From positions 51,210-115,209 of the forward strand of contig CAJBKE010000033.1 in assembly GCA_903953565.1 (NCBI GenBank): 64,000 nucleotides of DNA, read 5' to 3'. The notes beneath the pieces were generated by a model that did not search any database, was not told where the DNA came from, and worked only from the letters and a program-made list of their open reading frames with translations. The number at the start of each line of letters is the position of its first letter. Position 1 is the stretch's first letter. Below are positions 30,153 through 57,687 of the stretch, piece after piece. Position numbers and translations under genes: made by a program. The stretch comes from an uncultured Verrucomicrobiota bacterium. GTDB taxonomy: Bacteria > Verrucomicrobiota > Verrucomicrobiia > Chthoniobacterales > JACTMZ01.

Positions 30153-30279
30153 TCTCCGTCTGTCTCTTCGTCTTTTAAGCTCTTAGTCTTTTCGTCTCTT
30201 TTTCCTGACTCGTCACCAGCCACCCGCCACTCGTCACCGCGGCCTACGGCCGCTCTCTTGCTCCTCGCTCCATGCTCCC

Positions 30280-32103
30280 ATGCACCTCCTCGGCATATCC
30301 GCCTTCTACCATGACAGCGCGGCGGCGTTGGTGCGGGATGGGGAGATTGTTGCCGCGGCGCAGGAAGAACGCTTCACGCGGAAAAAACATGATGAACGCT
30401 TTCCGGAAAATGCCGTGCGGTATTGTCTCGAAGCAGCGGGAATCAAGGCCTCGAATCTTGATGCCGTCATCTTCTACGAGAAGCCGCTGCTCAAGTTCGA
30501 GCGTCTTCTCGAGACCTATCTGGCTTTCGCTCCGCGCGGATTGTTCTCCTTCTTCCGCGCCATGCCGCAGTGGTTGCAACAGAAACTGCACTTGCCACGG
30601 GAAATCGACAAAGGACTGGGCGGCGACTACGCGGGGCCGATTTATTTCTGCACGCACCACGAGTCGCACGCCGCCAGCGCGTTTTTCCCGAGCCCGTTTG
30701 ACGAAGCAGCCATCATCACCCTCGACGGGGTGGGGGAGTGGACCACGACCAGTTGGGGTGTGGGCCGCGGCAACAAGATCGAACTTCGCGGCGAAGTCCG
30801 CTTTCCCCATTCGCTCGGGTTGCTCTACAGCGCGTTCACCTATTACTGCGGATTCCGCGTCAATTCCGGCGAATACAAAGTCATGGGCCTCGCGCCCTAC
30901 GGCGAACCGCGCTTTGCCGATCTCATCCGCCAGCATCTGATCGATCTCAAAGACGACGGATCGTTCCGTCTCGACATGGGCTACTTCAATTATTGTCAGG
31001 GTCTCACTATGACGAGTGACCGCTTCCATCGCTTGTTCGGCGGTCCGCCGCGCCATCCGGATAGCGCCCCGACCCAGCGCGACATGGATCTCGCGGCAAG
31101 TATTCAACTGGTCACCGAAGAAGCCATGCTCCATATCGCGCGACACGTGCATGCGAAGACCGGATTGAAAAATCTCTGCCTGGCCGGCGGCGTGGCGCTC
31201 AATTGCGTCGGCAACGGGCGTATCCTGCGCGAAGGGCCTTTCGAAAACATCTGGATCCAACCCGCTGCGGGCGATGCCGGCGGCGCACTCGGGGCGGCGC
31301 TCTGGTGCTGGTATCAACACATGGGCAGCTCGCGCACTCCGCAACCGCGCGACAGTCAGCACGGATCCTATCTCGGTCCGGAATATTCGCCCGCGCAGGT
31401 CCGCGAGGAACTCGATGCCGCGCACGCCGTTTACGAAACCTTCGAGAACACCGAGCAATTGGCCGACGCCATCGCCGCCGAGTTGGTCGACGGAAAAATC
31501 GTGGGCCACTTCGCCGGCCGCGCCGAGTTCGGTCCGCGCGCACTTGGCCACCGCTCGCTCCTCGGCGATCCTCGTAATCCCGAGACGCAGACCCGCATGA
31601 ATGTGGCCATCAAGTTCCGCGAGTCTTTCCGTCCGTTTGCGCCCTCGGTCGTGGAGGGCAAACAGTCCGGGTATTTCGATCTCACTGCCGAAAGTCCCTA
31701 CATGTTGCTCGTCGCTCCGGTTCGCGAAGACAAGCGCTGCCCGCTCTTACCCGAAGAAGAAAAGCTCACCGGTCTGGCCAAACTCAAAACCGTGCGCAGC
31801 GAATTGCCGGCCGTCACGCACGTCGACTATTCCGCGCGTGTCCAAACCGTGAGCAAGGATCGCTCCCCGCGTTTTCATGCGATCCTCGAAGCCTTCGAAA
31901 AACGCACCGGACGTCCGGTTTTGGTCAACACCAGCTTCAACGTCCGCGGCGAACCCATCGTGCATAGTCCATCCGATGCCTACCGCTGCTTCATGTTCAC
32001 CGACATGGACGTGCTGGTCGTCGAAAACTGCCTCCTACGCAAACCCGCACAACCGCCCATGCCGGGCGCGGAAGAGTATCGCCGCCAGTTCCGTGCGGAC
32101 TGA
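30280..32103 (+). CDS. Carbamoyltransferase (NodU/CmcH family)
   Basis: 607 aa. MHLLGISAFYHDSAAALVRDGEIVAAAQEERFTRKKHD and the C-terminal YrdC-like/Kae1-like organisation are typical of NodU/CmcH. Confidence 0.9.
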   Translation: MHLLGISAFYHDSAAALVRDGEIVAAAQEERFTRKKHDERFPENAVRYCLEAAGIKASNLDAVIFYEKPLLKFERLLETYLAFAPRGLFSFFRAMPQWLQQKLHLPREIDKGLGGDYAGPIYFCTHHESHAASAFFPSPFDEAAIITLDGVGEWTTTSWGVGRGNKIELRGEVRFPHSLGLLYSAFTYYCGFRVNSGEYKVMGLAPYGEPRFADLIRQHLIDLKDDGSFRLDMGYFNYCQGLTMTSDRFHRLFGGPPRHPDSAPTQRDMDLAASIQLVTEEAMLHIARHVHAKTGLKNLCLAGGVALNCVGNGRILREGPFENIWIQPAAGDAGGALGAALWCWYQHMGSSRTPQPRDSQHGSYLGPEYSPAQVREELDAAHAVYETFENTEQLADAIAAELVDGKIVGHFAGRAEFGPRALGHRSLLGDPRNPETQTRMNVAIKFRESFRPFAPSVVEGKQSGYFDLTAESPYMLLVAPVREDKRCPLLPEEEKLTGLAKLKTVRSELPAVTHVDYSARVQTVSKDRSPRFHAILEAFEKRTGRPVLVNTSFNVRGEPIVHSPSDAYRCFMFTDMDVLVVENCLLRKPAQPPMPGAEEYRRQFRAD

Positions 32104-34178: not shown

Positions 34179-35132
34179 ATGAAAATCTCCGCCATCATCT
34201 GTACGCATAATCCGCGTCCGCACTACTTGCGCCGGGTGCTGGAGGCGCTCGAGCGGCAGACGCTCGCCAAGGCTGAATGGGAACTGCTGCTCATCGATAA
34301 TGCCTCGACGAAGCCGTTGCGCGGGCGCGCGGCGCATGAGGTATTAGGCGAGAGGCCAGCGGATAAAGATCAGACGGCATTTGATTTAAGTTGGCATCCG
34401 CGCGGGCGGATCATCCGTGAAGATAAGGTCGGTTTGACTCATGCGCGTTTGCGGGGCATCGATGAGGCGAGGGGAGAACTCATCGTCTTCATTGATGACG
34501 ATAATGTTTTGGCGCCCGATTATTTCGAGCGCTGCCTGGCTATTTCCGCGAATTGGCCGCAACTCGGCGTGTGGGGTGGGAGCGTCGCCGGCGAGTTTGA
34601 GGTGCCGCCGCCGGAATGGATCAAGCGCTTCCTGGCTGGAATGGTCGTTTATGAAATCGATCGCGACTACTGGTCCAACATGGCGGTGTGGTCCCCGGCT
34701 ATTCCGTTTGGCGCTGGCATGTGCATCCGGTCATCTTTGGCGCGCATCTATGCTGATGGAGTGAAAAATGATCCCATGCGGCAGAGACTTGGAAGGACTG
34801 GTTCAGCGATGACGGCCTCCGAGGATGTCGACCTTGCCTACACCGTGATCGGGGAAGGATTTGGCACCGCGCGTTTCAAGGACCTCAAAATCACGCACCT
34901 CATTCCCAAGGAGCGACTCACCGAGGATTACGTGGTTAGGTTGTTCTCCGGCTTCGAGGTCTCCGGTTTTGCCATGGCAAAGATCCGCGGTGAAAAGCGG
35001 TCGCCGCTCTACGGCGATCTCCGTAGCGAACTGCGATTTTGGAAAAAGTATCTCGAGTCCTCGTCCATCGACCGCAAGATCATGGCGGCAGCGCGGAAGC
35101 AAATGAAGGAGATGGAGAAAGCGGAAGGCTAG
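34179..35132 (+). CDS. Glycosyltransferase family 2 (paralog group with 39705 and 54055)
   Basis: ISAIICTHNPRPHYLRRVLEAL, LLLIDNAST, FIDDDNVLAPDY. Contains a ~51-nt word-repeat insertion relative to its paralogs. Confidence 0.85.
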   Translation: MKISAIICTHNPRPHYLRRVLEALERQTLAKAEWELLLIDNASTKPLRGRAAHEVLGERPADKDQTAFDLSWHPRGRIIREDKVGLTHARLRGIDEARGELIVFIDDDNVLAPDYFERCLAISANWPQLGVWGGSVAGEFEVPPPEWIKRFLAGMVVYEIDRDYWSNMAVWSPAIPFGAGMCIRSSLARIYADGVKNDPMRQRLGRTGSAMTASEDVDLAYTVIGEGFGTARFKDLKITHLIPKERLTEDYVVRLFSGFEVSGFAMAKIRGEKRSPLYGDLRSELRFWKKYLESSSIDRKIMAAARKQMKEMEKAEG

Positions 35133-35295
35133 AGGCGGGAGGCAATAGGCGTAAGCCATGAGGCGCTAGGCGAGAGGCGATAGGTCAAAGACCGGAGATC
35201 AGAGTTCGGAGGTCAGCAACCTGACGTCAGCGGACGGAAGTGAGAGAGCTGAAACAGCAGATTGAACAAAGTAGATTCCAGATAGGAGAGAGACG
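35133..35295. repeat. Purine-rich degenerate word-repeat spacer (TAGGCGAGAGGCGATAGG / CGGAGATCAGAG / CGGAGGTCAG words)
   Basis: T-poor, G>C-skewed spacer. Homologous by eye to the spacer at 55078-55252 and shares words with most spacers between 46.5 and 60.8 kb. Confidence 0.8.
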
Positions 35296-36189
35296 ATGAA
35301 TCCAACCACTATATCCAATGTCCCGTCTTCCGCAGTGGCAGCGCCGTTGCAGGAGCGCATTTATTCGCCGGAGCCGCTGTTGCAGCATCCTTGGAAGATG
35401 CTCAAGGCGATCGCGGCCGACGTCTGGGCGGGCCGAGAGTTGGCGTGGCGTTTGTTTCTGCGCGATCTCCGTGCCGGCACGCGGCAGACCTATCTTGGCT
35501 ACATCTGGCTGTTCCTTCCGCCGTTGGTGGCTTCCTTTACTTTTATTTTCCTGCAGTCGCAGGGAATCACGAACATCGAGGGAACCGGTATCGCTTATCC
35601 CGCCTTTGCCATGATGGGAACGCTCCTTTGGCAGGTCTTCGTCGACGGCATGCAGAGCCCGATCAACTCCTTCAATGGTGCGAAGGCCATGTTGGTGAAG
35701 ATCAACTTTCCGCGCGAGGCCGTGCTCGTCGGTGGTCTTTACATGGTCATTTCCAACACGCTCATCCGCCTCGCGCTGGTTGTCGCCGTGATGCTGTGGT
35801 GGCATGTGCCGGTCAGCGAGACGCTGCTTTTCTTCCCTGTGGCCATGTTGGCTCTTCTGGCTGCCGGCTTTGCCTTAGGGCTTATTCTGCTGCCTATCTC
35901 AAACTTGTATGGCGACGTTGGAAGAGTCATTCCCATGGTCACAAGCTTCTGGATGCTGCTCACCCCGGTGGTATATCCGCCGCAGGGCGAAGGTTTGGCC
36001 GGATGGCTCGCAAAGTGGAATCCGGTTTCGCCGCTCATCATCACCGCGCGCGAGACGCTCACCGCCCAGCCGTTGAGCATGCTGGGGCCGTTCTTCATCG
36101 TCCTCGCCTGCTCGCTCGCTGTGATCTTTCTTGGGTTGGTCGGTTTCCGCATCTCCATGCCGCATTTGATCGCTCGGATGGGCGGCTGA
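35296..36189 (+). CDS. wzm: ABC-2 type polysaccharide export permease
   Basis: 297 aa, 6 TM helices. N-terminal RELAWRLFLRDLRAGTRQTYLGYIWLFLPPL is typical of Wzm/KpsM/TagG. Confidence 0.85.
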   Translation: MNPTTISNVPSSAVAAPLQERIYSPEPLLQHPWKMLKAIAADVWAGRELAWRLFLRDLRAGTRQTYLGYIWLFLPPLVASFTFIFLQSQGITNIEGTGIAYPAFAMMGTLLWQVFVDGMQSPINSFNGAKAMLVKINFPREAVLVGGLYMVISNTLIRLALVVAVMLWWHVPVSETLLFFPVAMLALLAAGFALGLILLPISNLYGDVGRVIPMVTSFWMLLTPVVYPPQGEGLAGWLAKWNPVSPLIITARETLTAQPLSMLGPFFIVLACSLAVIFLGLVGFRISMPHLIARMGG

Positions 36190-36203
36190 GCCGCCCAGCG
36201 GGC

Positions 36204-36337
36204 GATGGGAGATAGAAGATCGCAGATAGTAGATCGGGGGCAGGCGGAGTCTTCAGGAGATTGGAGACAAGAGATGGTAGATCGGCGCCAATCTTCTGCA
36301 TCCCATCTTCCATATCCCAGCTACCATCTTCCAATCC
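36204..36337. repeat. Palindromic AGATGG/CCATCT word element upstream of four-helix-bundle gene 1
   Basis: Purine arm GATGGGAGATAGAAGAT...AGATGGTAGATCGG, then pyrimidine arm CCAATCTTCTGCATCCCATCTTCCATATCCCAGCTACCATCTTCC. About 85% similar to the element inside wzt (36968-37078). Confidence 0.8.
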
Positions 36338-36341
36338 TTCC

Positions 36342-36722
36342 ATGAGTATGAAGTTCGAGGATTTGGAGGCGTGGAGGGAGGCGCGCATGTTGAGCAAAGA
36401 CATCTACGCGCTCACTCGGACCGGCTCACTGTCAAAAGACCTTCGGTTATGCTCGCAGGTTCAAGCCGCAGCCGTATCCGTTATGTCGAACGTTGCCGAG
36501 GGCTTCGAAAGAACGGGCAACCAAGAGAAGTTGCATTTTTACAACATCGCTCGTGCTTCGTGCGGAGAGCTGCGCTCACAGCTTTATATCATCGAAGATG
36601 TTTACACAGAGTTATCAGCAAAAACTTCAGAACTTCGGGAAGGTGCCGAGTCTGTCGGGCGGCTGATCAGCGGCCTCATCGCAAGCACGCGACGGCGTGT
36701 GGCCGGGGCCGCGAAAGAGTAG
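36342..36722 (+). CDS. Four-helix-bundle protein (23S rRNA IVS protein / Avd family), copy 1
   Basis: MSMKFEDLEAWREARMLSKDIY ... QAAAVSVMSNVAEGFER ... FYNIARASCGELRSQL matches the TIGR02436/PF05635 signature. Confidence 0.85.
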   Translation: MSMKFEDLEAWREARMLSKDIYALTRTGSLSKDLRLCSQVQAAAVSVMSNVAEGFERTGNQEKLHFYNIARASCGELRSQLYIIEDVYTELSAKTSELREGAESVGRLISGLIASTRRRVAGAAKE

Positions 36723-36738
36723 ATGGGAGATGGAAGAT
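36721..36738. repeat. Right inverted-repeat arm of cassette 1
   Basis: AGATGGGAGATGGAAGAT is complementary (16/18) to ATCTTCCATATCCCAGCT at 36305-36322. Starts within the ORF stop codon. Confidence 0.65.
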
Positions 36739-36764
36739 CAGAGGTAAAAGATAAAAGAGTCACG

Positions 36765-38159
36765 ATGAACAAAACTGCCCAATCCCATCTGCTATCTACC
36801 GGCGCCGAAAGCGCCATTCTAACCCCAACCTCGGCCGCAGACGGCGAGGTGCTTGTTCGCGTCGAGGGCGTCTCGAAGAAATTCTGTCGCTCTTTGAAAA
36901 AGAGCCTGTGGTATGGACTGTGCGATATCGCGGGGGAACTTTCGCCCTTCGGGCGGCGCGATGTCGCGGGAGATAGTAGATTGAAGATGGTAGATCGGGC
37001 CCAATCTTCCATGTCCCATCTTCCATCTTCTGGCGCAGGGACCGCCCTATCTTCCATATCCCAGCTTCCATCTTCCTCACCGTCCCTTCGCGATGGCGAG
37101 TTCTGGGCGGTGAATGATGTTTCTTTCGAACTGCGCCGCGGGGAATGCCTCGGCTTGATTGGTCACAATGGGGCGGGGAAGACGACGCTACTCAAGATGC
37201 TCAATGGGTTGATCAAGCCGGATGCGGGGACGATCACCATGCGCGGGCGGGTTGGGGCGCTGATTGCGCTCGGGGCGGGGTTCAATCCGATTCTGACGGG
37301 ACGGGAAAATATCTACATCAACGGTTCGGTGCTGGGCCTTTCGAAAAAGGAAATCGACGAGAAGATCGACGAGATCATCGACTTTGCCGAGATCGGGGAA
37401 TTCATCGACATGCCGGTGCAGAACTATTCGTCGGGAATGCAGGTCCGATTGGGGTTCGCGGTGGCTACCGCATTGGATCCTGACATTTTGATTTTGGATG
37501 AGGTCTTGGCAGTAGGAGACGCAAGATTCCAGGCCAAGTGCCTTAAGCGCATCACGCAGATGTTCAGTCGTTGCTGCGTGATCTTTGTTTCGCATCAGGC
37601 TCATATCATTCAGATGATATGCAGTCGGGTGCTGTGGATGCGGAAGGGAAGGACTGTGGAGGACGGCGCGCCTACGGAGATCCTTCAAGCCTATCTGGCC
37701 GCCAGCGATGGTGATTCCACAAAAGAAGAGTCGGGAGCTGTTTTGGCCCCCGAAATCGCGCGCTTCCATTTGGACGTCGAGCATCCTCGTTTGAGCCTTG
37801 GCGATTCGTTGCATTGCTGCATTCACGTGAGCCTGTCGCGGCCAGTCGCATTTGGTCGGCTACTCGTATGTCTTTTGGACGTGGCGGATAGGTATGTCGC
37901 GCGCGCTACCTGTGACCTGCGCAAGACGGAATCCATGTCAGGTGATGTCAGTATTCGTGTCTGCCTCCAAGATCTGCGTTTGGCTGTTGGTGAATACAAA
38001 ATACAGATTGTTTGCTTCTCCAGTCATCCGGTTGCCCAGCTTGTAAACTATACCCATCCACGGACAGTATTTTGTGATTCCGACATTGTTTCGGAGGTTA
38101 AGTATCAGCCCGCTTCCTCTTGGGAGTTGGTCGAAAATAGTGGAGAGCGTTGGAAGTAA
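36765..38159 (+). CDS. wzt: ABC polysaccharide export ATP-binding protein with C-terminal glycan-binding-type domain
   Basis: Walker A GHNGAGKTTLLK, signature YSSGMQVRL, Walker B ILILDE. An extra ~170-aa C-terminal domain as in Wzt. ATG 36765 preferred. Confidence 0.85.
   Translation: MNKTAQSHLLSTGAESAILTPTSAADGEVLVRVEGVSKKFCRSLKKSLWYGLCDIAGELSPFGRRDVAGDSRLKMVDRAQSSMSHLPSSGAGTALSSISQLPSSSPSLRDGEFWAVNDVSFELRRGECLGLIGHNGAGKTTLLKMLNGLIKPDAGTITMRGRVGALIALGAGFNPILTGRENIYINGSVLGLSKKEIDEKIDEIIDFAEIGEFIDMPVQNYSSGMQVRLGFAVATALDPDILILDEVLAVGDARFQAKCLKRITQMFSRCCVIFVSHQAHIIQMICSRVLWMRKGRTVEDGAPTEILQAYLAASDGDSTKEESGAVLAPEIARFHLDVEHPRLSLGDSLHCCIHVSLSRPVAFGRLLVCLLDVADRYVARATCDLRKTESMSGDVSIRVCLQDLRLAVGEYKIQIVCFSSHPVAQLVNYTHPRTVFCDSDIVSEVKYQPASSWELVENSGERWK
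36968..37078. repeat. 111-nt palindromic word element inserted in frame in wzt
   Basis: GGGAGATAGTAGATTGAAGATGGTAGATCGGGCCCAATCTTCCATGTCCCATCTTCCAT...ATCCCAGCTTCCATCTTCCTC. Near-copy of the intergenic 36204-36337. Length is 37 codons with no stop. Confidence 0.8.
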
Positions 38160-38194
38160 AAGTAGGCGGCAATGGCACGGTAGAGCGTAAAATT

Positions 38195-39568
38195 ATGACT
38201 GAATCATCAACTAGAGAAGCAATGTGGGCGCAGTTTGTTCGCGAAAATAACTTCCGTGACATTGCGGAGGTTGGCGTGTGGAAGGGCGAATTCGCCAGGC
38301 ATCTGCTCCTAGAGTGCCAGCAGATTCGCAGCTATCTCATGGTCGATAGTTGGAGGCACCTTGAGGGCTGGAATAAGCCGTTTAATCTGAGCGACTCTCA
38401 GTTGGAGCAAGTTTACCAACAGGCTCTCTTGAACACCGAGTTTGCTAAAGAAAAGGTGCGCGTGTTGAGAGGGACAACCCTTGAGGAGCGAGGGAAGATC
38501 GCAGACGACAGTTTGGATTTTGTCTACATCGATGGTGATCACTCGCTCAGAGGCATCGTGATCGACGCGCTGAGCAGGTGGCCGAAGTTGCGCGCAGGTG
38601 GGGTGCTGGCTGGTGACGACTTTAGTGATACCGTGTGGCAGCACTCGCTGGAATTCGAACCTTCGTTGGTCAACCCTTTCATGAGGTATTTCGCCGATGC
38701 GGTTGGAGAACACTTGCACGTCTTGCCGTATAACCAATGTTACATACAAAAGTCTTGCTCGAGCGGCATTGGTCAGGCTCCTGCCGCTAGCGCGCAGCAC
38801 GGTTTATTGCCGCTCCTAAATATTTCCTCATTGAGCAGTGGTTCTGACAAGAACCGAGAACTGCAGCAGTTATTGGCGTTACCTAAGCGCTTAACAAAAG
38901 CGCTACTCCGTCGCAGTTCTGCTCGCTTTCGAGAGCGGGAGGCTATCACGCGCCACGGCGAACGTTTTCCGGAGTATTTCTCAAGAACGGGTATTGCATT
39001 TATTCATGTTCCGAAAGCGGCTGGTACCAGCATTTCACTAGCACTATATGGACTCGCCGTTGGACATCGTCGCCTCAGTGAGTGGCAAACAAGGTTTCCG
39101 TTTTCAATGAGGAAAGTAAGGACCTTGGCTATTGTTCGAGATCCGCTGGAGCGTTTCGTTTCTGCTTTCAACTTCCTGAAGGCAGGTGGGATGAACGATC
39201 TAGACAAGAATTTTGCGAATGCTCAACTGGCCGCTTTTAGCGGCCCAGCAGAGTTGGCGGAGGCGTTAGTGGACCCAATTTGCCAAGCCAAAGTGCTTGT
39301 CTATCCCCACTTCACGAGACAGGTGGATTTTGTGACAAATGCGTCTGGCGCCGTGGATATTGATTGTCTTGTCTGTCTTGAAGACCTTGCTGTGGCGGAG
39401 AAGTGGGCAGCGGAAAGGAGCAGATCCAAAGTAGTGTTTAAACAAATGAACGCTAATCCCATAGCGAAAGGAAAATTGCGATGGACGCCAGCTTCCTTAG
39501 ACGTGCTAAAGGCTATTTATCGGGAAGATTTTGAGCTGTATGAGGCAGCAAAGAACCTCTCAAGCTAG
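38195..39568 (+). CDS. Bifunctional class I SAM methyltransferase (N) / family-2 sulfotransferase (C)
   Basis: N-terminal: FVYIDGDHSLRGIVIDALSRWPKLRAGGVLAGDDF (Methyltransf_24-like). C-terminal: FIHVPKAAGTSI (5'-PSB) and IVRDPLERFVSAF (3'-PB) sulfotransferase motifs. Confidence 0.75.
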   Translation: MTESSTREAMWAQFVRENNFRDIAEVGVWKGEFARHLLLECQQIRSYLMVDSWRHLEGWNKPFNLSDSQLEQVYQQALLNTEFAKEKVRVLRGTTLEERGKIADDSLDFVYIDGDHSLRGIVIDALSRWPKLRAGGVLAGDDFSDTVWQHSLEFEPSLVNPFMRYFADAVGEHLHVLPYNQCYIQKSCSSGIGQAPAASAQHGLLPLLNISSLSSGSDKNRELQQLLALPKRLTKALLRRSSARFREREAITRHGERFPEYFSRTGIAFIHVPKAAGTSISLALYGLAVGHRRLSEWQTRFPFSMRKVRTLAIVRDPLERFVSAFNFLKAGGMNDLDKNFANAQLAAFSGPAELAEALVDPICQAKVLVYPHFTRQVDFVTNASGAVDIDCLVCLEDLAVAEKWAAERSRSKVVFKQMNANPIAKGKLRWTPASLDVLKAIYREDFELYEAAKNLSS

Positions 39569-50463: not shown

Positions 50464-50832
50464 ATGGGTAAGGGAGGCTTTCGAGGATTGAAGGTTTGGC
50501 AGCGGGCGAAAGCACTGGCTGTCGATGTTTATGCTGCCGTGAAGAGTTCTCCGGAGTTGGCCAAAGATTTCGGGCTGCGTGATCAGATGCAGCGCGCGGC
50601 GGTAAGTGTCTGCAGTAATATTGCCGAAGGAGATGAAAGGGACACGGACAAGGATGCGGTTCGCTTCTTCTACATCGCAAAAGGTTCTGTTGCGGAGCTG
50701 ATCACGCAGCTCGAGATAGCCAAAGACGCGCAGCTTATCGAGTTATCGAGGGCGGACGCCCTGATCAAAGAAGCCGAGGAGATTGGCTCCATGCTTGGCG
50801 CGTTGATCAAAGCCCGCGCCGCATGCCTATAG
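50464..50832 (+). CDS. Four-helix-bundle protein (23S rRNA IVS protein / Avd family), copy 2
   Basis: GFRGLKVWQRAKALAVDVY ... RAAVSVCSNIAEGDER ... FFYIAKGSVAELITQLEIA. Confidence 0.9.
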   Translation: MGKGGFRGLKVWQRAKALAVDVYAAVKSSPELAKDFGLRDQMQRAAVSVCSNIAEGDERDTDKDAVRFFYIAKGSVAELITQLEIAKDAQLIELSRADALIKEAEEIGSMLGALIKARAACL

Positions 50833-52523: not shown

Positions 52524-52874
52524 ATGGCGGGATTTGAAGATTTGGAAGTTTGGCAACGGGCGGTGGCGCTTAGTGCGGATGTGTATCGTCGAATGGCTTC
52601 CTGCAAAGACTTCGGATTTCGTGATCAGATCACGCGATCTGCTCTTTCGATACCGTCCAACATAGCGGAGGGCATGGAGCGAAGCTCCGTCCCTGATCGC
52701 TCGAAGTTTCTGGACTACGCTCGTGGTTCTTGCGGCGAGTTTCGAACTCAAGCAACCGTTGGGACTAAAGCCGGCTTGCTCGAGTCAGCGCTCGCCGAAG
52801 AGTGGATCGCTGCAAGCCGCACTTTATCGGCGATGATCCAAGGGCTTATCCGCTCTCTGAAAACCGCAAACTGA
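52524..52874 (+). CDS. Four-helix-bundle protein (23S rRNA IVS protein / Avd family), copy 3
   Basis: MAGFEDLEVWQRAVALSADVY ... RSALSIPSNIAEGMER ... FLDYARGSCGEFRTQ. Confidence 0.9.
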   Translation: MAGFEDLEVWQRAVALSADVYRRMASCKDFGFRDQITRSALSIPSNIAEGMERSSVPDRSKFLDYARGSCGEFRTQATVGTKAGLLESALAEEWIAASRTLSAMIQGLIRSLKTAN

Positions 52875-53945: not shown

Positions 53946-54054
53946 GGCAAGAGGCAAGAGGCGCCAGGAAGGAGGCTAGGCACGGATCAACGCGGATTCG
54001 CGCGGATTATTCTTCGTGCGCACACGCACGAAGCAAAGTGATTGCTTGGGGAAC

Positions 54055-55077
54055 ATGAGTGAGAGCGCGGTAAAGATAGCGGCGAGCGTCTTGATTCCGA
54101 CGCATAATCCGCGGCGGGACTATCTCGCGCGGGTGGTAGAAGCGTTGCGCGGCCAGACTCTACCGCGCGAGCGGTGGGAGTTGCTCGTCGTCGATAACAG
54201 CTCGCGGGAGAAATTAGAAGGAAGAGTGGATATCGGGTGGCATCCGAGTGCGCGGGTGGTGTGGGAGGAAAGGCTTGGGCTTACGTTCGCGCGGCTCCGG
54301 GGTTTTGCCGAAGCAAAGGGTAAGCTCATTGTGATGGTCGATGATGACAATGTGCTCGCGCCCGATTATCTCGAAGCGGCTGTGCGTATTGCGCAGGAGC
54401 AACCCGCACTTGGAGCATTTGGAGGGAAATGTCTGCCTGAGTTTGAAGTGGAGCCGGAGCCTTGGCTCGAGGCTAGAGGCAAGGGGCTGGGGCTTCGCGA
54501 TCGTGGCGAACGGGAAGAGTTCTTCCCGGAAGCCGCGGTCGCGGAGGGTGGGAAAGTGGGAAAGTGGGAAGGTGGCAAGGTAAAGCGCGCGGTGCGCCAG
54601 TTTCCGGATTGTGCGCCGATTGGGGCAGGGATGGTCTTGCGGCGGGACGCCGCTCGGGCTTATGCCGAGCGGCTTCAGGTTCGAGGCGAGAGGCAGGAGG
54701 CACGAGGTAAAGAGACGATTACGGATAGGAAAGGCGACAGTTTGGCGTCGGGTGGAGACAATGACATTTGCCTTACGGTGATTGAGGAGGGTTGGCAGGT
54801 CGGGTATTTGCCGCAGTTGCAACTCATGCATTTGATTCCGGAGCGCCGCATGACGCTGGATTACCACAAGCGCATGGCACGGGATTCGATGAAAAGTTTT
54901 ATCCTGATGCTTGATCAGCACGGGATCCGTCCTTGGTCGGCCATGCCGAAGTGGACGTTGCCGTTGCGGGTGGCGAGTGACTGGTGGCGGGTCAAGCCAT
55001 GGCAAGGACCAGGGCAGTCGCTGAGCTTTTGGGGAAACGTCGGGATGTATGAGGGTCGCGCGGCCTTGCCGTGCTAA
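54055..55077 (+). CDS. Glycosyltransferase family 2 (paralog of 34179 and 39705, with word-repeat segments)
   Basis: ATG 54055. ASVLIPTHNPRRDYLARVVEAL, LLVVDNSS, MVDDDNVLAPDY. About 23 aa longer than its paralogs. Confidence 0.8.
   Translation: MSESAVKIAASVLIPTHNPRRDYLARVVEALRGQTLPRERWELLVVDNSSREKLEGRVDIGWHPSARVVWEERLGLTFARLRGFAEAKGKLIVMVDDDNVLAPDYLEAAVRIAQEQPALGAFGGKCLPEFEVEPEPWLEARGKGLGLRDRGEREEFFPEAAVAEGGKVGKWEGGKVKRAVRQFPDCAPIGAGMVLRRDAARAYAERLQVRGERQEARGKETITDRKGDSLASGGDNDICLTVIEEGWQVGYLPQLQLMHLIPERRMTLDYHKRMARDSMKSFILMLDQHGIRPWSAMPKWTLPLRVASDWWRVKPWQGPGQSLSFWGNVGMYEGRAALPC
54548..54579. repeat. Tandem degenerate 8-mer (GTGGGAAA x4) inside the GT2 coding sequence
   Basis: GTGGGAAA GTGGGAAA GTGGGAAG GTGGCAAG, encoding GKVGKWEGGKV. 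Confidence 0.8.
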
Positions 55078-56366: not shown

Positions 56367-56684
56367 ATGGGTAAACGGGGATTTAGGGATTTGAAGGTTT
56401 GGCAACGGGCGAAGGCGCTGGCTGTCGAGGTTTATGCTGCGGTGAGGAGATCACCAGATTTGGCGAAGGAGTTTGGGCTGCGCGATCAGATGCAGCGCTC
56501 TGCCGTTAGCGTTTGTAGCAACATTGCGGAGGGGGACGAAAGAGACATGGATAAGGACGCGGTGCGCTTCTTTTATATGGCAAAAGGTTCGGTCGCAGAG
56601 TTAATCACACAACTCGAGATCGCGAAGGACGTCCGCGCCTCCTGCCTAAAGCCCATCGCCTCTTGCCTAGAGCCTATTGCCTGA
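56367..56684 (+). CDS. Four-helix-bundle protein, copy 4 (C-terminally truncated; possibly decaying)
   Basis: About 80% nt-similar to copy 2 through QLEIAKD. The last helix is then replaced by repeat-encoded ASCLKPIASCLEPIA. Confidence 0.7.
   Translation: MGKRGFRDLKVWQRAKALAVEVYAAVRRSPDLAKEFGLRDQMQRSAVSVCSNIAEGDERDMDKDAVRFFYMAKGSVAELITQLEIAKDVRASCLKPIASCLEPIA
56657..56682. repeat. Right inverted-repeat arm of cassette 4
   Basis: CGCCTCTTGCCTAGAGCCTATTGCCT. The ORF stop TGA follows at 56682-56684. Confidence 0.75.
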
Positions 56685-56688
56685 TCCC

Positions 56689-57687
56689 ATGACTTTAGGA
56701 CGTCTGGTATACGTGCTCTACCACCGGCCGGTTGGCCGGTTAAAAACGTGCTTACGCGAGGGTGGCCCGATCCAACAGTGGAAGACGGAGAAGGGGAGGA
56801 GGGAGATGGAGCAGGCGGCCTACGGCCTGACTGCTCCAGTGACGAGTGACAAGTGGCGAGTGACGAGTGCTTCGGAGGTCGGAGGTCAGATATCAGACAT
56901 CCGGTCCCCGATCTCTGGAGCGCCGGTCGAGATCCATATGTTGGTGGGAACGCGGTTTTGGTTTATGGCTGCCTACGCGTTGGTAAGTTTACAGCGGCAG
57001 ATCGACCGCGCGTTGCACGTGCATTTTTACGACGATGGGTCGCTCGAGGCGCGGCAACGGGAGAAGCTCAGAGAGTTGGCAGCGGAAGTGACTTTTCATG
57101 ACCGTGCAGGTATCGATGCGCGAATCGGGCAATATCTGCCGGAAGAGAAGTTCCCGTTTATCCGTGAGCGGCTGCGGAATTACCCGAATCTGAAAAAGCT
57201 GACGGATCCTCATGTTGGCTCAAGTGGGCCAAAGCTGGTCATGGATGCTGATGTCTTGTTTTTCGGTTGGCCGAAGGAATTACTTCAATGGTCCGATACA
57301 CCTGAAACCATTCTCTGCGCCACTGATGTAACTGAGAGCTATGGATACTCGCGGGCATTGATGGAGAAATTGGCCGGGGCGCCGATTCCCCTAGACATCA
57401 ATGTCGGCATTACTGGTCTGCAATCCGAGTCTCTGAACTGGCAAGAGCTGGAGCGCTGGTGTCGCGAGCTGATCACGCACGAGAAGACCAACTATTATCT
57501 CGAACAAGCACTCGTTGCGATGCTGTGTGCGCAGCGCCCTTTCACGCAGCTGCCCTTGGAGCGATATATCACCGGACCTTCCGACACGCAGGTGCTGGTA
57601 GGGGAAGGTGTAATGCAGCATTACGTGGACCTCTCAAAGAAGGAATACTTCCGAAAGGTGTGGAAGAAATTCACTGCTGAATCGTGA
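56689..57687 (+). CDS. Uncharacterised GT-A-like protein, paralog B
   Basis: LVMDADVLFF (DxD) and YYLEQALVAMLCA. The N-terminal region carries an ~83-nt word-repeat insertion. Confidence 0.6.
   Translation: MTLGRLVYVLYHRPVGRLKTCLREGGPIQQWKTEKGRREMEQAAYGLTAPVTSDKWRVTSASEVGGQISDIRSPISGAPVEIHMLVGTRFWFMAAYALVSLQRQIDRALHVHFYDDGSLEARQREKLRELAAEVTFHDRAGIDARIGQYLPEEKFPFIRERLRNYPNLKKLTDPHVGSSGPKLVMDADVLFFGWPKELLQWSDTPETILCATDVTESYGYSRALMEKLAGAPIPLDINVGITGLQSESLNWQELERWCRELITHEKTNYYLEQALVAMLCAQRPFTQLPLERYITGPSDTQVLVGEGVMQHYVDLSKKEYFRKVWKKFTAES

Follow-up and report, generated by a model that had tools for sequence, protein, structure and literature searches.

A heptanucleotide-repeat hairpin carried in frame by the Wzt ATPase gene of an uncultured Verrucomicrobiota bacterium, and related period-7 tracts around small genes and within enzymes

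The subject of this report is a palindromic repeat segment that lies in frame within wzt, the gene for the ABC ATPase of a Wzm-Wzt exporter, in a 64,000-nt stretch of DNA (hereafter, the window) from an uncultured Verrucomicrobiota bacterium of the Chthoniobacterales, lineage JACTMZ01 (GenBank assembly GCA_903953565.1, contig CAJBKE010000033.1, positions 51,210 to 115,209, forward strand). The segment (the insert; 36968-37078 in window coordinates) is composite, joining degenerate heptanucleotide tracts (NGNAGAT four times, then ATCTYCC) to a 15-nt GC mini-hairpin, and not a discrete transposable element of the miniature inverted-repeat type (MITE); among Wzt orthologs, the repeat family that occupies this site is uncoupled from the phylogeny of the protein. 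The insert belongs to a cluster of related tracts that spans the wzm-wzt junction and encloses a small gene for a four-helix-bundle (4HB) protein of PF05635/TIGR02436, the protein family of 23S rRNA intervening sequences (IVS). The features of the locus are as follows (here and below, L and P numbers denote loci and Wzt proteins from the comparison).

35296-36189, plus strand: wzm, ABC-2 permease gene upstream of the repeat cluster (PF01061 ABC2_membrane, E 1.2e-09)
36207-36239, plus strand: intergenic purine arm A, four NGNAGAT heptamers and CGGGG (88% identity to 36968-36999)
36240-36255, plus strand: spacer module g (GCAGGCGGAGTCTTCA); a related GC mini-hairpin, GCAGGCGGAGCCTGC, separates purine arms in the L001 wzt insert
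36256-36285, plus strand: second, more degenerate purine arm A' (72%; 79% over 58 nt with 36969-37026)
36286-36341, plus strand: pyrimidine tracts B of the intergenic copy (ATCTTCC type), which run up to the start codon of the PF05635 gene (85% identity to 37046-37085)
36342-36722, plus strand: PF05635/TIGR02436 4HB gene between wzm and wzt (Pfam E 4.5e-27; NCBIfam TIGR02436 E 7.5e-26)
36719-36752, plus strand: purine arm A'', pairing with 36291-36324 and 36778-36800
36765-38159, plus strand: wzt, encoding an ABC ATPase whose C-terminal domain is beta-rich (PF00005, Aquifex Wzt structures, AlphaFold2 model)
36778-36800, plus strand: pyrimidine arm in wzt codons 5-12, encoding AQSHLLST, partner of A''
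36801-36815, plus strand: GC mini-hairpin h (GGCGCCGAAAGCGCC), a 15-mer found identically behind a pyrimidine arm in the L001 wzt insert
36942-36956, plus strand: small GC hairpin TCGCCCTTCGGGCGG, encoding SPFGR, just 5' of the insert
36957-36968, plus strand: imperfect palindrome CGCGATGTCGCG at the 5' junction of the insert; CGCGATG, the first 7 nt of this palindrome, is found again at 37089-37095
36968-36999, plus strand: intragenic purine arm A, GGGAGAT AGTAGAT TGAAGAT GGTAGAT CGGG
37000-37031, plus strand: intragenic pyrimidine arm B1 (ATCTTCC type), complement of A (inverted repeats of 32 nt, 78%, and 16 nt, 88%)
37032-37046, plus strand: diverged GC mini-hairpin h' (GGCGCAGGGACCGCC), 15 nt, aligning to GGCGCCGAAAGCGCC of L001
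37047-37078, plus strand: second pyrimidine arm B2 (direct and inverted repeat matches)
37089-37095, plus strand: 3' copy of CGCGATG in native coding sequence (LRDGEF), a candidate stem base or 7-bp duplication

The wzt open reading frame (ORF) contains a PF00005 ABC_tran domain (E 4.3e-25 in a Pfam scan), and its product matches the Aquifex aeolicus Wzt structures 6AMX, 6AN5 and 6OIH (E 3e-61). The ORF and the ABC ATPase motifs are intact; wzt is therefore not a pseudogene, a state that the initial annotation, made from the letters of the sequence, had named as one that would speak against its reading. The continuous, stop-free frame across 111 nt that it described is confirmed, and the peptide that it gave has 38 residues, not 37, because the insert starts on the third base of a codon (codon 68). 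The other two plus-strand frames reach TGA or TAG inside the first arm. The modules follow one another in the order A-B-h-B, and at most two adjacent heptamer units are identical (CATCTTC CATCTTC). The insert-spanning tryptic peptide predicted for this Wzt is AQSSMSHLPSSGAGTALSSISQLPSSSPSLR.

Pieces of the insert of 32, 40 and 58 nt match the intergenic element at 36207-36341 at 88, 85 and 79%, respectively, and the two elements are collinear in the alignment, in agreement with the near-copy relationship noticed initially, with slightly different bounds. This repeat family (the AGAT family) is represented in the window by three copies, all within about 900 bp: 36207-36341, 36719-36752 and the insert itself; the count of copies inside and outside coding sequences, envisaged initially for the whole genome, thus covers these 64 kb. 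The two copies outside the insert bracket the PF05635 gene and enclose the wzt start codon. In particular, arm A'' forms with 36291-36324 an inverted repeat of 34 nt (79%) that brackets the 4HB gene, and it pairs with 36778-36800 in a hairpin whose loop contains the wzt start codon; the fold of 36700-36820 (-40 kcal/mol, z = -3.48) was matched in stability by 0 of 200 shuffles. Tandem Repeats Finder (TRF) reports a period of 14 at 36210-36236 and 36300-36327. The 10-mer CCATCTTCCA (at most one mismatch) occurs 15 times against 4.05 expected, a count reached in 0 of 100 shuffles, and nine of these 15 matches fall in 36303-37077.

The arms of the insert (16-32 nt) are 78-88% complementary, so that the self-complementarity of a purine arm followed by a pyrimidine arm stands as initially described; the fold energy, however, is not clearly beyond that of dinucleotide shuffles (z = -1.5 for the sense and -2.2 for the antisense strand over 131 nt; z = -0.9 over 156 nt). 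These scores are modest because purine-rich and pyrimidine-rich composition by itself gives pairing; the hairpin is an architectural feature with a statistically unexceptional fold energy. An alternative that we regard as unlikely is that this hairpin and the small GC hairpin 5' of it are kept for an action on the wzm-wzt transcript or DNA; they might make ribosomes pause once the gate helix is translated, offer a site for RNase III or other processing, mask a C-rich tract for Rho loading, or serve as a site of recombination when cassettes are captured. Such a role would be consistent with the persistence of the hairpin architecture at this site despite a complete change of sequence family, with the constant polarity of the sense strand, G-rich arm first and C-rich arm 3' of it, with a related hairpin whose loop contains the wzt start codon (z = -3.5), and with cyanobacterial work in which regulatory roles are proposed for heptamer repeats near start codons (bioRxiv 10.1101/2022.06.06.494920; PMC4679880). 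It would also fit the 5' mini-hairpin, where TCGCCCTTCGGGCGG is replaced in L185-L187 by CTTCCTGGGAGGAAG or CTTCCCGTTGGGAAG (encoding LPGRK or LPVGK) with both sides of the stem altered (TCGCCC/GGGCGA vs CTTCCT/AGGAAG). However, some orthologs (P0015, P0032 and P0083) retain only one arm or a short remnant, and the z-scores span only -0.9 to -2.9. A consistent asymmetry between sense and antisense folding, which would have indicated an RNA-level element, was not found in eight orthologs, neither strand folding consistently better. A permissive Rfam scan of 35000-38300 returned only a chance match to a miRNA model (E 0.24), and a promoter and terminator scan found nothing at the insert.

The sequence of the locus is well supported by independent assemblies. 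The segment 35249-37223 is reproduced with 0 differences in contigs of two independent lake-metagenome runs, and in a third and a fourth run the insert is present with seven substitutions and no indel; the insert is thus free of indels across the contigs of four runs, although contigs may hide rare variants. This observation bears on a further possibility, namely that slippage of the 7-nt unit toggles wzt, and hence O-antigen export, as a phase-variation switch. The length of the unit, which is not divisible by 3, the nature of the gene (surface-polysaccharide genes are classic targets of contingency loci) and the period-7 tract reported by TRF at 37004-37030 (3.9 copies) are all as such a switch would have them. 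Nevertheless, given the degeneracy of the units, the constant length of the insert in these contigs and the intact frame of all retrieved homologs, we consider a switch highly improbable, the least probable of the explanations discussed here.

In the protein, the insert falls between strand beta1 with its following helix and the conserved EFWAV...GHNGAGKT core; residue 112 of this Wzt (in EFWAV) aligns to residue 32-34 of the Aquifex protein. The linker from SLWYG to Walker A comprises 81 aa in this Wzt vs 41-52 aa in insert-free orthologs (P0003, P0004, P0005 and L105), so that the ortholog alignment bears out an insert, which adds about 40 aa. The last of these relatives was the only useful one from a metagenome scan with the Wzt alignment, the matches listed being mostly distant ABC ATPases drawn in by the Walker A pattern. 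In an AlphaFold2 model, strand beta1 comprises residues 29-34 and is followed by a helix at 38-59, which, from published Wzm-Wzt structures, we take to be the gate helix, presumably located at the substrate entry as in the published structures of the Aquifex complex. Residues 54-117 have no secondary structure and a predicted local distance difference test (pLDDT) score below 50; for the insert itself (residues 68-105), the score is about 25. By this modeling, which had been suggested initially to see whether the insert is a surface loop, the insert is probably a disordered loop behind the gate helix.

Comparison of this linker in 113 scored Wzt homologs shows that it varies between 42 and 153 aa and contains low-complexity segments of many unrelated repeat families, all in frame, which is partly due to the collection because protein databases hold intact ORFs only. 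This Wzt has GDRRLEMGDR...SSISHLPSS at the site, whereas other families read VAGSGLLVAGNG...SELATSNSPLVT, RDEGRELSDR...LDSGLSTLDS, HKNLTTDGSDGHG...SVLISEISGKK, and others. At the DNA level, all eight insert-bearing orthologs that were examined have a G-rich arm followed by its C-rich complement (19-35 nt, 71-84% complementary), compared with an inverted repeat in 0 of two insert-free ones. Within the AGAT family, orthologs vary by whole modules, from A-B in L002 through A-B-h-B in the window to A-g-A-g-A-B-h-B in L001. The motif GATCGGGGGCAGGCGGAG is common to the intergenic copy in the window and the L001 insert, and GGCGCCGAAAGCGCC stands behind a pyrimidine arm both at the N-terminus of wzt in the window (36801) and in the L001 insert; these shared non-heptamer modules indicate that the copies are related composite repeats rather than independent simple-sequence expansions.

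The distribution of the families does not follow the relationships of the proteins. The closest case is P0001, which belongs to the same 90% cluster as this Wzt and is 95.5% identical to it in the nucleotide-binding domain (NBD) and 92.2% in the C-domain, yet carries an unrelated VAGSG/ATSNS hairpin at the insert site, as judged from comparison at the protein level. Conversely, P0006, P0008, P0039 and others, with about 75% NBD identity and unrelated C-domains, have an AGAT-type segment at the exact position of the insert. The counterevidence named initially, homologous segments at this position in Wzt proteins from unrelated taxa, is thus present in part. In a second 90% cluster, the insert again differs between close members (P0015 vs P0125), and members of one cluster differ in both the insert and the N-terminal tract. 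The N-terminal extension of these Wzts holds the 3' arm of the hairpin that encloses the start codon and tends to belong to the repeat family of the internal insert: within one protein, the N-terminal tract and the insert have 1.59 three-residue words in common, vs 0.68 +/- 0.11 when proteins are permuted. Taken together, the insert family is uncoupled from Wzt phylogeny, and the pattern points to replacement of the wzt 5' region by recombination and/or to local gene conversion, and neither to vertical divergence nor to a single transposition. The same data bear on the possibility that the Ser/Pro/Gly/Asp/Arg-rich loop is a protein segment selected as a flexible tether or interaction site. Most members of the clade do have an extended linker, and it adjoins the gate helix. 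However, the peptide follows from the repeat sequence, near-identical orthologs carry unrelated peptides, the length of the loop varies more than 3-fold and it is predicted to be disordered; together with the recurrence of the same peptides (GDRRSEMGDR, ISHLPSP) in unrelated enzymes, these features leave a selected segment with little probability.

That recurrence was found in other, mostly verrucomicrobial, genomes, where peptides of the GDRRSEMGDR/ISHLPSP type are present in Dxr, UreC, CarB, DHFR, UbiD and a family 4 glycosyltransferase (GT4). A 22-base pattern of the purine arm matches 99 stretches in species-representative genomes (596 Gb), with less than one expected by chance according to our own arithmetic. 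The hosts are mostly Verrucomicrobiota, including Chthoniobacter flavus Ellin428, with others in Planctomycetota, Chloroflexota, Chamaesiphon, Gemmatimonadota and more; the tracts are also carried by a 7.5-Mb Thermoguttaceae contig (JAXGXG010000001). A perfect (GGGAGAT)n tract with its complement is stop-free in all six frames and reads GRWEMGD and ISHLPSP. Eight tract-spanning ORFs were checked against Pfam. The in-frame GGGAGAT tract lies inside the DXP_redisom_C domain of C. flavus Dxr, the amidohydrolase domain of UreC (urease alpha), the pre-ATP-grasp domain of CarB, the domain of DHFR and the GT4 domain; in UbiD, it lies between the N-terminal and Rift-related domains, at the same site in three metagenome-assembled genomes; in MiaA, at the N-terminus; and in a Wzt of another subfamily, at the structurally equivalent site.

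Some of these loci show additional details. In C. flavus Ellin428 (L030, NZ_ABVL01000018.1), the in-frame hairpin of dxr combines GGGAGAT-type and AACTCCG-type tracts and sits between DSEHNAIFQCL and LILTASGGPF, inside DXP_redisom_C; this cultured bacterium is a possible experimental model. In the GT4 genes of L025 and L088, the purine tract and the complementary pyrimidine tract are in two different loops, with the conserved strand WDLVLLGDGP encoded between them.

The initial annotation likened the insert to the Rickettsia palindromic elements (RPEs). The effect is indeed alike, namely a palindromic repeat in frame, whereas neither the kind of element nor a recent, genome-specific insertion is borne out. 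A scenario of this type, in which a discrete, non-autonomous palindromic element comparable to an RPE or a MITE jumped once in frame, for example from 36207-36341, appears unlikely to us. The near copy 700 bp upstream, the complex modules common to copies at different positions and the occurrence of the same tract family in many genes of many genomes are what one would expect of such an element; however, its copies vary in the number and order of modules and have no fixed ends, only three copies of the family are present in 64 kb, clustered as described above, and, in near-identical orthologs, the identical site is taken by hairpins of unrelated families. The 7-nt CGCGATG that flanks the insert, as TCGCGAT does on both sides in L103, could be read as a target-site duplication; however, the flanking CGCGAT is the base of the stem and consists of conserved codons, and need not have arisen by duplication. 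No transposase (among the window ORFs scanned), no terminal inverted repeats of known insertion sequences (IS) and no unambiguous target-site duplication were found, and the 22-base pattern has 0 matches in 2.9 million viral contigs.

Period-7 tracts are not confined to wzt. In the window as a whole, 21 tracts are self-similar at lag 7, vs 0-4 at other lags; they belong to several families (e.g., AGGCGAG, GTGACGA, GGTCAGA) and, according to TRF, are mostly found at gene boundaries. Four PF05635 4HB genes are encoded in the window (36342-36722, 50464-50832, 52524-52874 and 56367-56684), all within the polysaccharide cluster, and each of the four is adjoined by period-7 tracts of its own family; for example, 50464-50832 has AGGCTAG/AGGCGAG upstream and GCCTCTA downstream. 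Across the loci fetched, 4HB genes are likewise flanked by inverted tracts, each with a heptamer family of its own (GGACCAC/GTGGTCC, CGGTGCG/CGCACCG, GCTAGTT/AACTAGC, CAGAGGT/ACCTCTG). The median complementarity score of these flanks is 15, vs 9 at control positions in the same loci (p = 3.6e-4), and exceeds the 95th percentile in seven of 14 cases.

Other tracts in the window lie within ORFs. The family 2 glycosyltransferase (GT2) ORF at 54016-55077 contains purine-rich repeats within 54461-54711, with AGGCNAG-type heptamers at 54461-54499 and 54671-54711 and 4.9 copies of GGAAGGTG at 54543-54581; judging from the sequence, these look like further in-frame inserts, without an obvious complementary arm. 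Near the 5' ends of ORFs, period-7 tracts are found at 56832-56910 (ORF 56677-57687) and at 30202-30238 (N-terminus of the carbamoyltransferase ORF 30187-32100); their families are AGTGACG, TCGGAGG and TCGTCAC.

The association with 4HB genes raises the possibility, which we consider tentative, that the PF05635 genes and the heptamer-tract hairpins form one mobile system, with an IVS-like cassette and the ORF-less hairpins as its non-autonomous derivatives. Under this proposal, the cassette would move by recombination at tracts of its own family, and the 4HB protein would bind its cognate heptamer tract; the ORF-less hairpins would stand to the 4HB cassette as REPINs, the hairpin doublets of repetitive extragenic palindromic (REP) sequences, stand to RAYTs, or as MITEs stand to IS elements. 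The 4HB protein shows a weak NCBIfam match to Avd, the accessory protein of diversity-generating retroelements. An exact-sequence look-up of the 4HB protein encoded next to wzt returned the same genomic context only, so that mobility is not evidenced at 100% identity.

The wzm-wzt spacer itself is variable among relatives. In a relative co-occurring in the same samples, the stretch between wzm and wzt is shorter by about 555 nt, leaving no room for the 4HB cassette, which is accordingly present or absent among co-occurring strains; in the same relative, an 81-nt segment replaces 108 nt of the wzt insert. In other relatives, the spacer holds different small genes, namely ParE, FitA/PIN, BrnT, DUF4160, or 4HB with GIY-YIG. 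Inspection of L003 (7030-11401) and of the regions upstream of wzt in L185, L186, L001 and L002 likewise presents the spacer as a collecting point for small accessory genes, among them the BrnT toxin, ParE, FitA/PIN, DUF4160, Kinase-PolyVal and 4HB; L003 also carries a 111-aa wzt fragment and a second wzm. In L187 (2084-3001), the 5' end of wzt is present first as a truncated duplicate (to ...VSKKFCRSL); behind it come a GC mini-hairpin and GTAACGA heptamers, then a PF05635 gene apparently split by a GIY-YIG nuclease gene, another heptamer hairpin and, finally, an intact wzt. This arrangement suggests that a cassette may have landed within wzt, with the 5' coding end duplicated or replaced.

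On either side of the wzm-wzt pair in the window, there are further features. Between a GT2 gene that ends at 35132 and wzm, the spacer (35121-35216) is filled by AGGCGAG-type heptamers, which extend over 95 nt (period 7, 8.4 copies), and by AGGTCAGAGACCGG. The gene next after wzt (38150-39568) encodes a methyltransferase-sulfotransferase fusion (PF13578 and PF03567); the listed TTG start of this ORF overlaps the wzt stop, and the public gene call (448 aa) implies a later start. By analogy with known O-antigen systems, the presence of this gene next to wzt would fit a Wzt-dependent pathway with a chain-terminating modification.

Probably, although with considerable room for the alternatives, the insert is a translated passenger that is tolerated at a repeat hotspot of long standing and is turned over by recombination or gene conversion. 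The period-7 tracts occur as inverted pairs at gene boundaries, bracket small accessory genes (PF05635 above all) and enclose start codons; under this scenario, heptamer-tract hairpins would be a lineage-specific class of repeats that builds up in such places and near small cassette genes. The linker between the N-terminal unit of beta1 and gate helix and the NBD core tolerates almost any length, and the wzt site is an old hotspot, at which the hairpin would be replaced or resized via recombination with other alleles or gene conversion from nearby tracts, the content of the insert being changed also by duplication of whole modules. Selection on Wzt would act only as a filter, for a length divisible by 3, the absence of stops in the frame used and a harmless low-complexity peptide, and the peptide encoded would be a passenger that contains no functional domain. 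The anatomy of the insert, the hotspot, its independence from phylogeny, the in-frame cases in other genes and the link with the 4HB gene are direct results, whereas the route of turnover and the neutrality of the peptide are inferred.

Several points weigh against the passenger hypothesis. No empty site is available in a close relative, and the mechanism of insertion or replacement is deduced rather than observed. The presence of the hairpin in nearly all members of the clade and the two-sided changes in the 5' stem could reflect selection on nucleic-acid structure. The invariably in-frame inserts are explained in part by the databases of intact ORFs from which they come. Finally, translation of the insert is predicted from the reading frame; the single RNA run with matches contained only related wzt sequences, in contigs that cover the conserved flanks and not this insert.

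The colonization of functional genes by in-frame palindromic repeats has been regarded as a peculiarity of Rickettsia. Here, it is reached by a second route, from heptanucleotide tracts, that spans free-living Verrucomicrobiota and other phyla and affects Wzt, Dxr, UreC, CarB, DHFR, UbiD and MiaA. Why heptamer repeats are over-represented in some bacteria lacks an accepted explanation, and this locus provides a context for such repeats: inverted pairs, bracketing of genes, hotspots and turnover of families. For the PF05635 proteins, which are widespread, the association with tracts suggests a candidate nucleic-acid partner and connects them to the origin of rRNA intervening sequences. If the mobile system outlined above were real, it would explain together the PF05635 ORF in rRNA intervening sequences, the over-representation of heptamers in some phyla and the loop insertions of conserved enzymes in these lineages. 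For genome annotation, low-complexity inserts of this kind should not be read as signs of pseudogenization or misassembly, and they inflate the apparent divergence between near-identical orthologs.

Comparison with known systems reveals partial similarities in several directions. As for a MITE, the insert has CGCGATG on both sides, in conserved coding sequence that also forms the stem base, the ends of the element vary between copies, and there is no cognate transposase among the window ORFs scanned; unlike a phase-variable contingency locus, the insert has no long perfect tandem tract and no length polymorphism in the contigs of the four runs. REP sequences and REPINs are also short imperfect palindromic units that form inverted hairpin doublets, with a small gene flanked by its own repeat family. 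However, REPINs are extragenic and the associated gene encodes a tyrosine transposase (RAYT), whereas here the associated gene is PF05635, a 4HB family not known to be catalytically active, and repeats are found within coding sequence as well. With the 23S rRNA IVS, the locus shares the PF05635 family and the location of the ORF in the loop of a stem with long inverted flanks (the cassette at 36286-36752 and other 4HB loci); in contrast to the IVS, it lies between and, by extension, within protein genes of the wzm-wzt operon, outside any rRNA helix, and the copy in wzt is devoid of an ORF and, as predicted from the intact frame, would be read through by the ribosome.

The RPEs are palindromic repeats found both in intergenic regions and in frame inside functional protein genes (PMC10969869). 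As with RPEs, the repeat described here is palindromic and of the class of about 100-150 nt (111 nt in this case), has intergenic copies and in-frame copies in unrelated functional genes, and adds a peptide at a structurally permissive place. The differences are that it is built of heptanucleotide tracts with a variable number of modules and no fixed consensus, that many unrelated families occupy one site in orthologs, that the hosts are free-living Verrucomicrobiota and members of other phyla, and that it is associated with the PF05635 cassette. The nearest tract-bearing genomes are those of Verrucomicrobiota and Planctomycetota; sequence homology to RPEs is unlikely, and the likeness is one of effect only. 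In the literature searched, which is incomplete and thus does not prove novelty, we found no paper that links PF05635 genes to heptamer repeats and none on in-frame heptamer hairpins in these phyla.

In substance, the closest known systems are the heptanucleotide repeats of bacteria, which include the short tandemly repeated repetitive (STRR) sequences of cyanobacteria, GGGGA(C/T)T of Nostoc, GGGAATC of Xanthomonas and TAACTGA of Beggiatoaceae and cyanobacteria (PMC4692102, PMC4679880). The tracts at this locus share with them a G-rich 7-nt unit (GGGAGAT resembles GGGGAYT), a preference for about four units, clustering near the start and stop codons of co-directional genes and a patchy distribution across phyla. 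Whereas the published repeats are described mostly as direct repeats in intergenic DNA, under-represented within coding regions (PMC4692102, PMC4679880), those reported here form inverted pairs and long hairpins, contain GC mini-hairpins, bracket genes and are found in frame within conserved enzymes.

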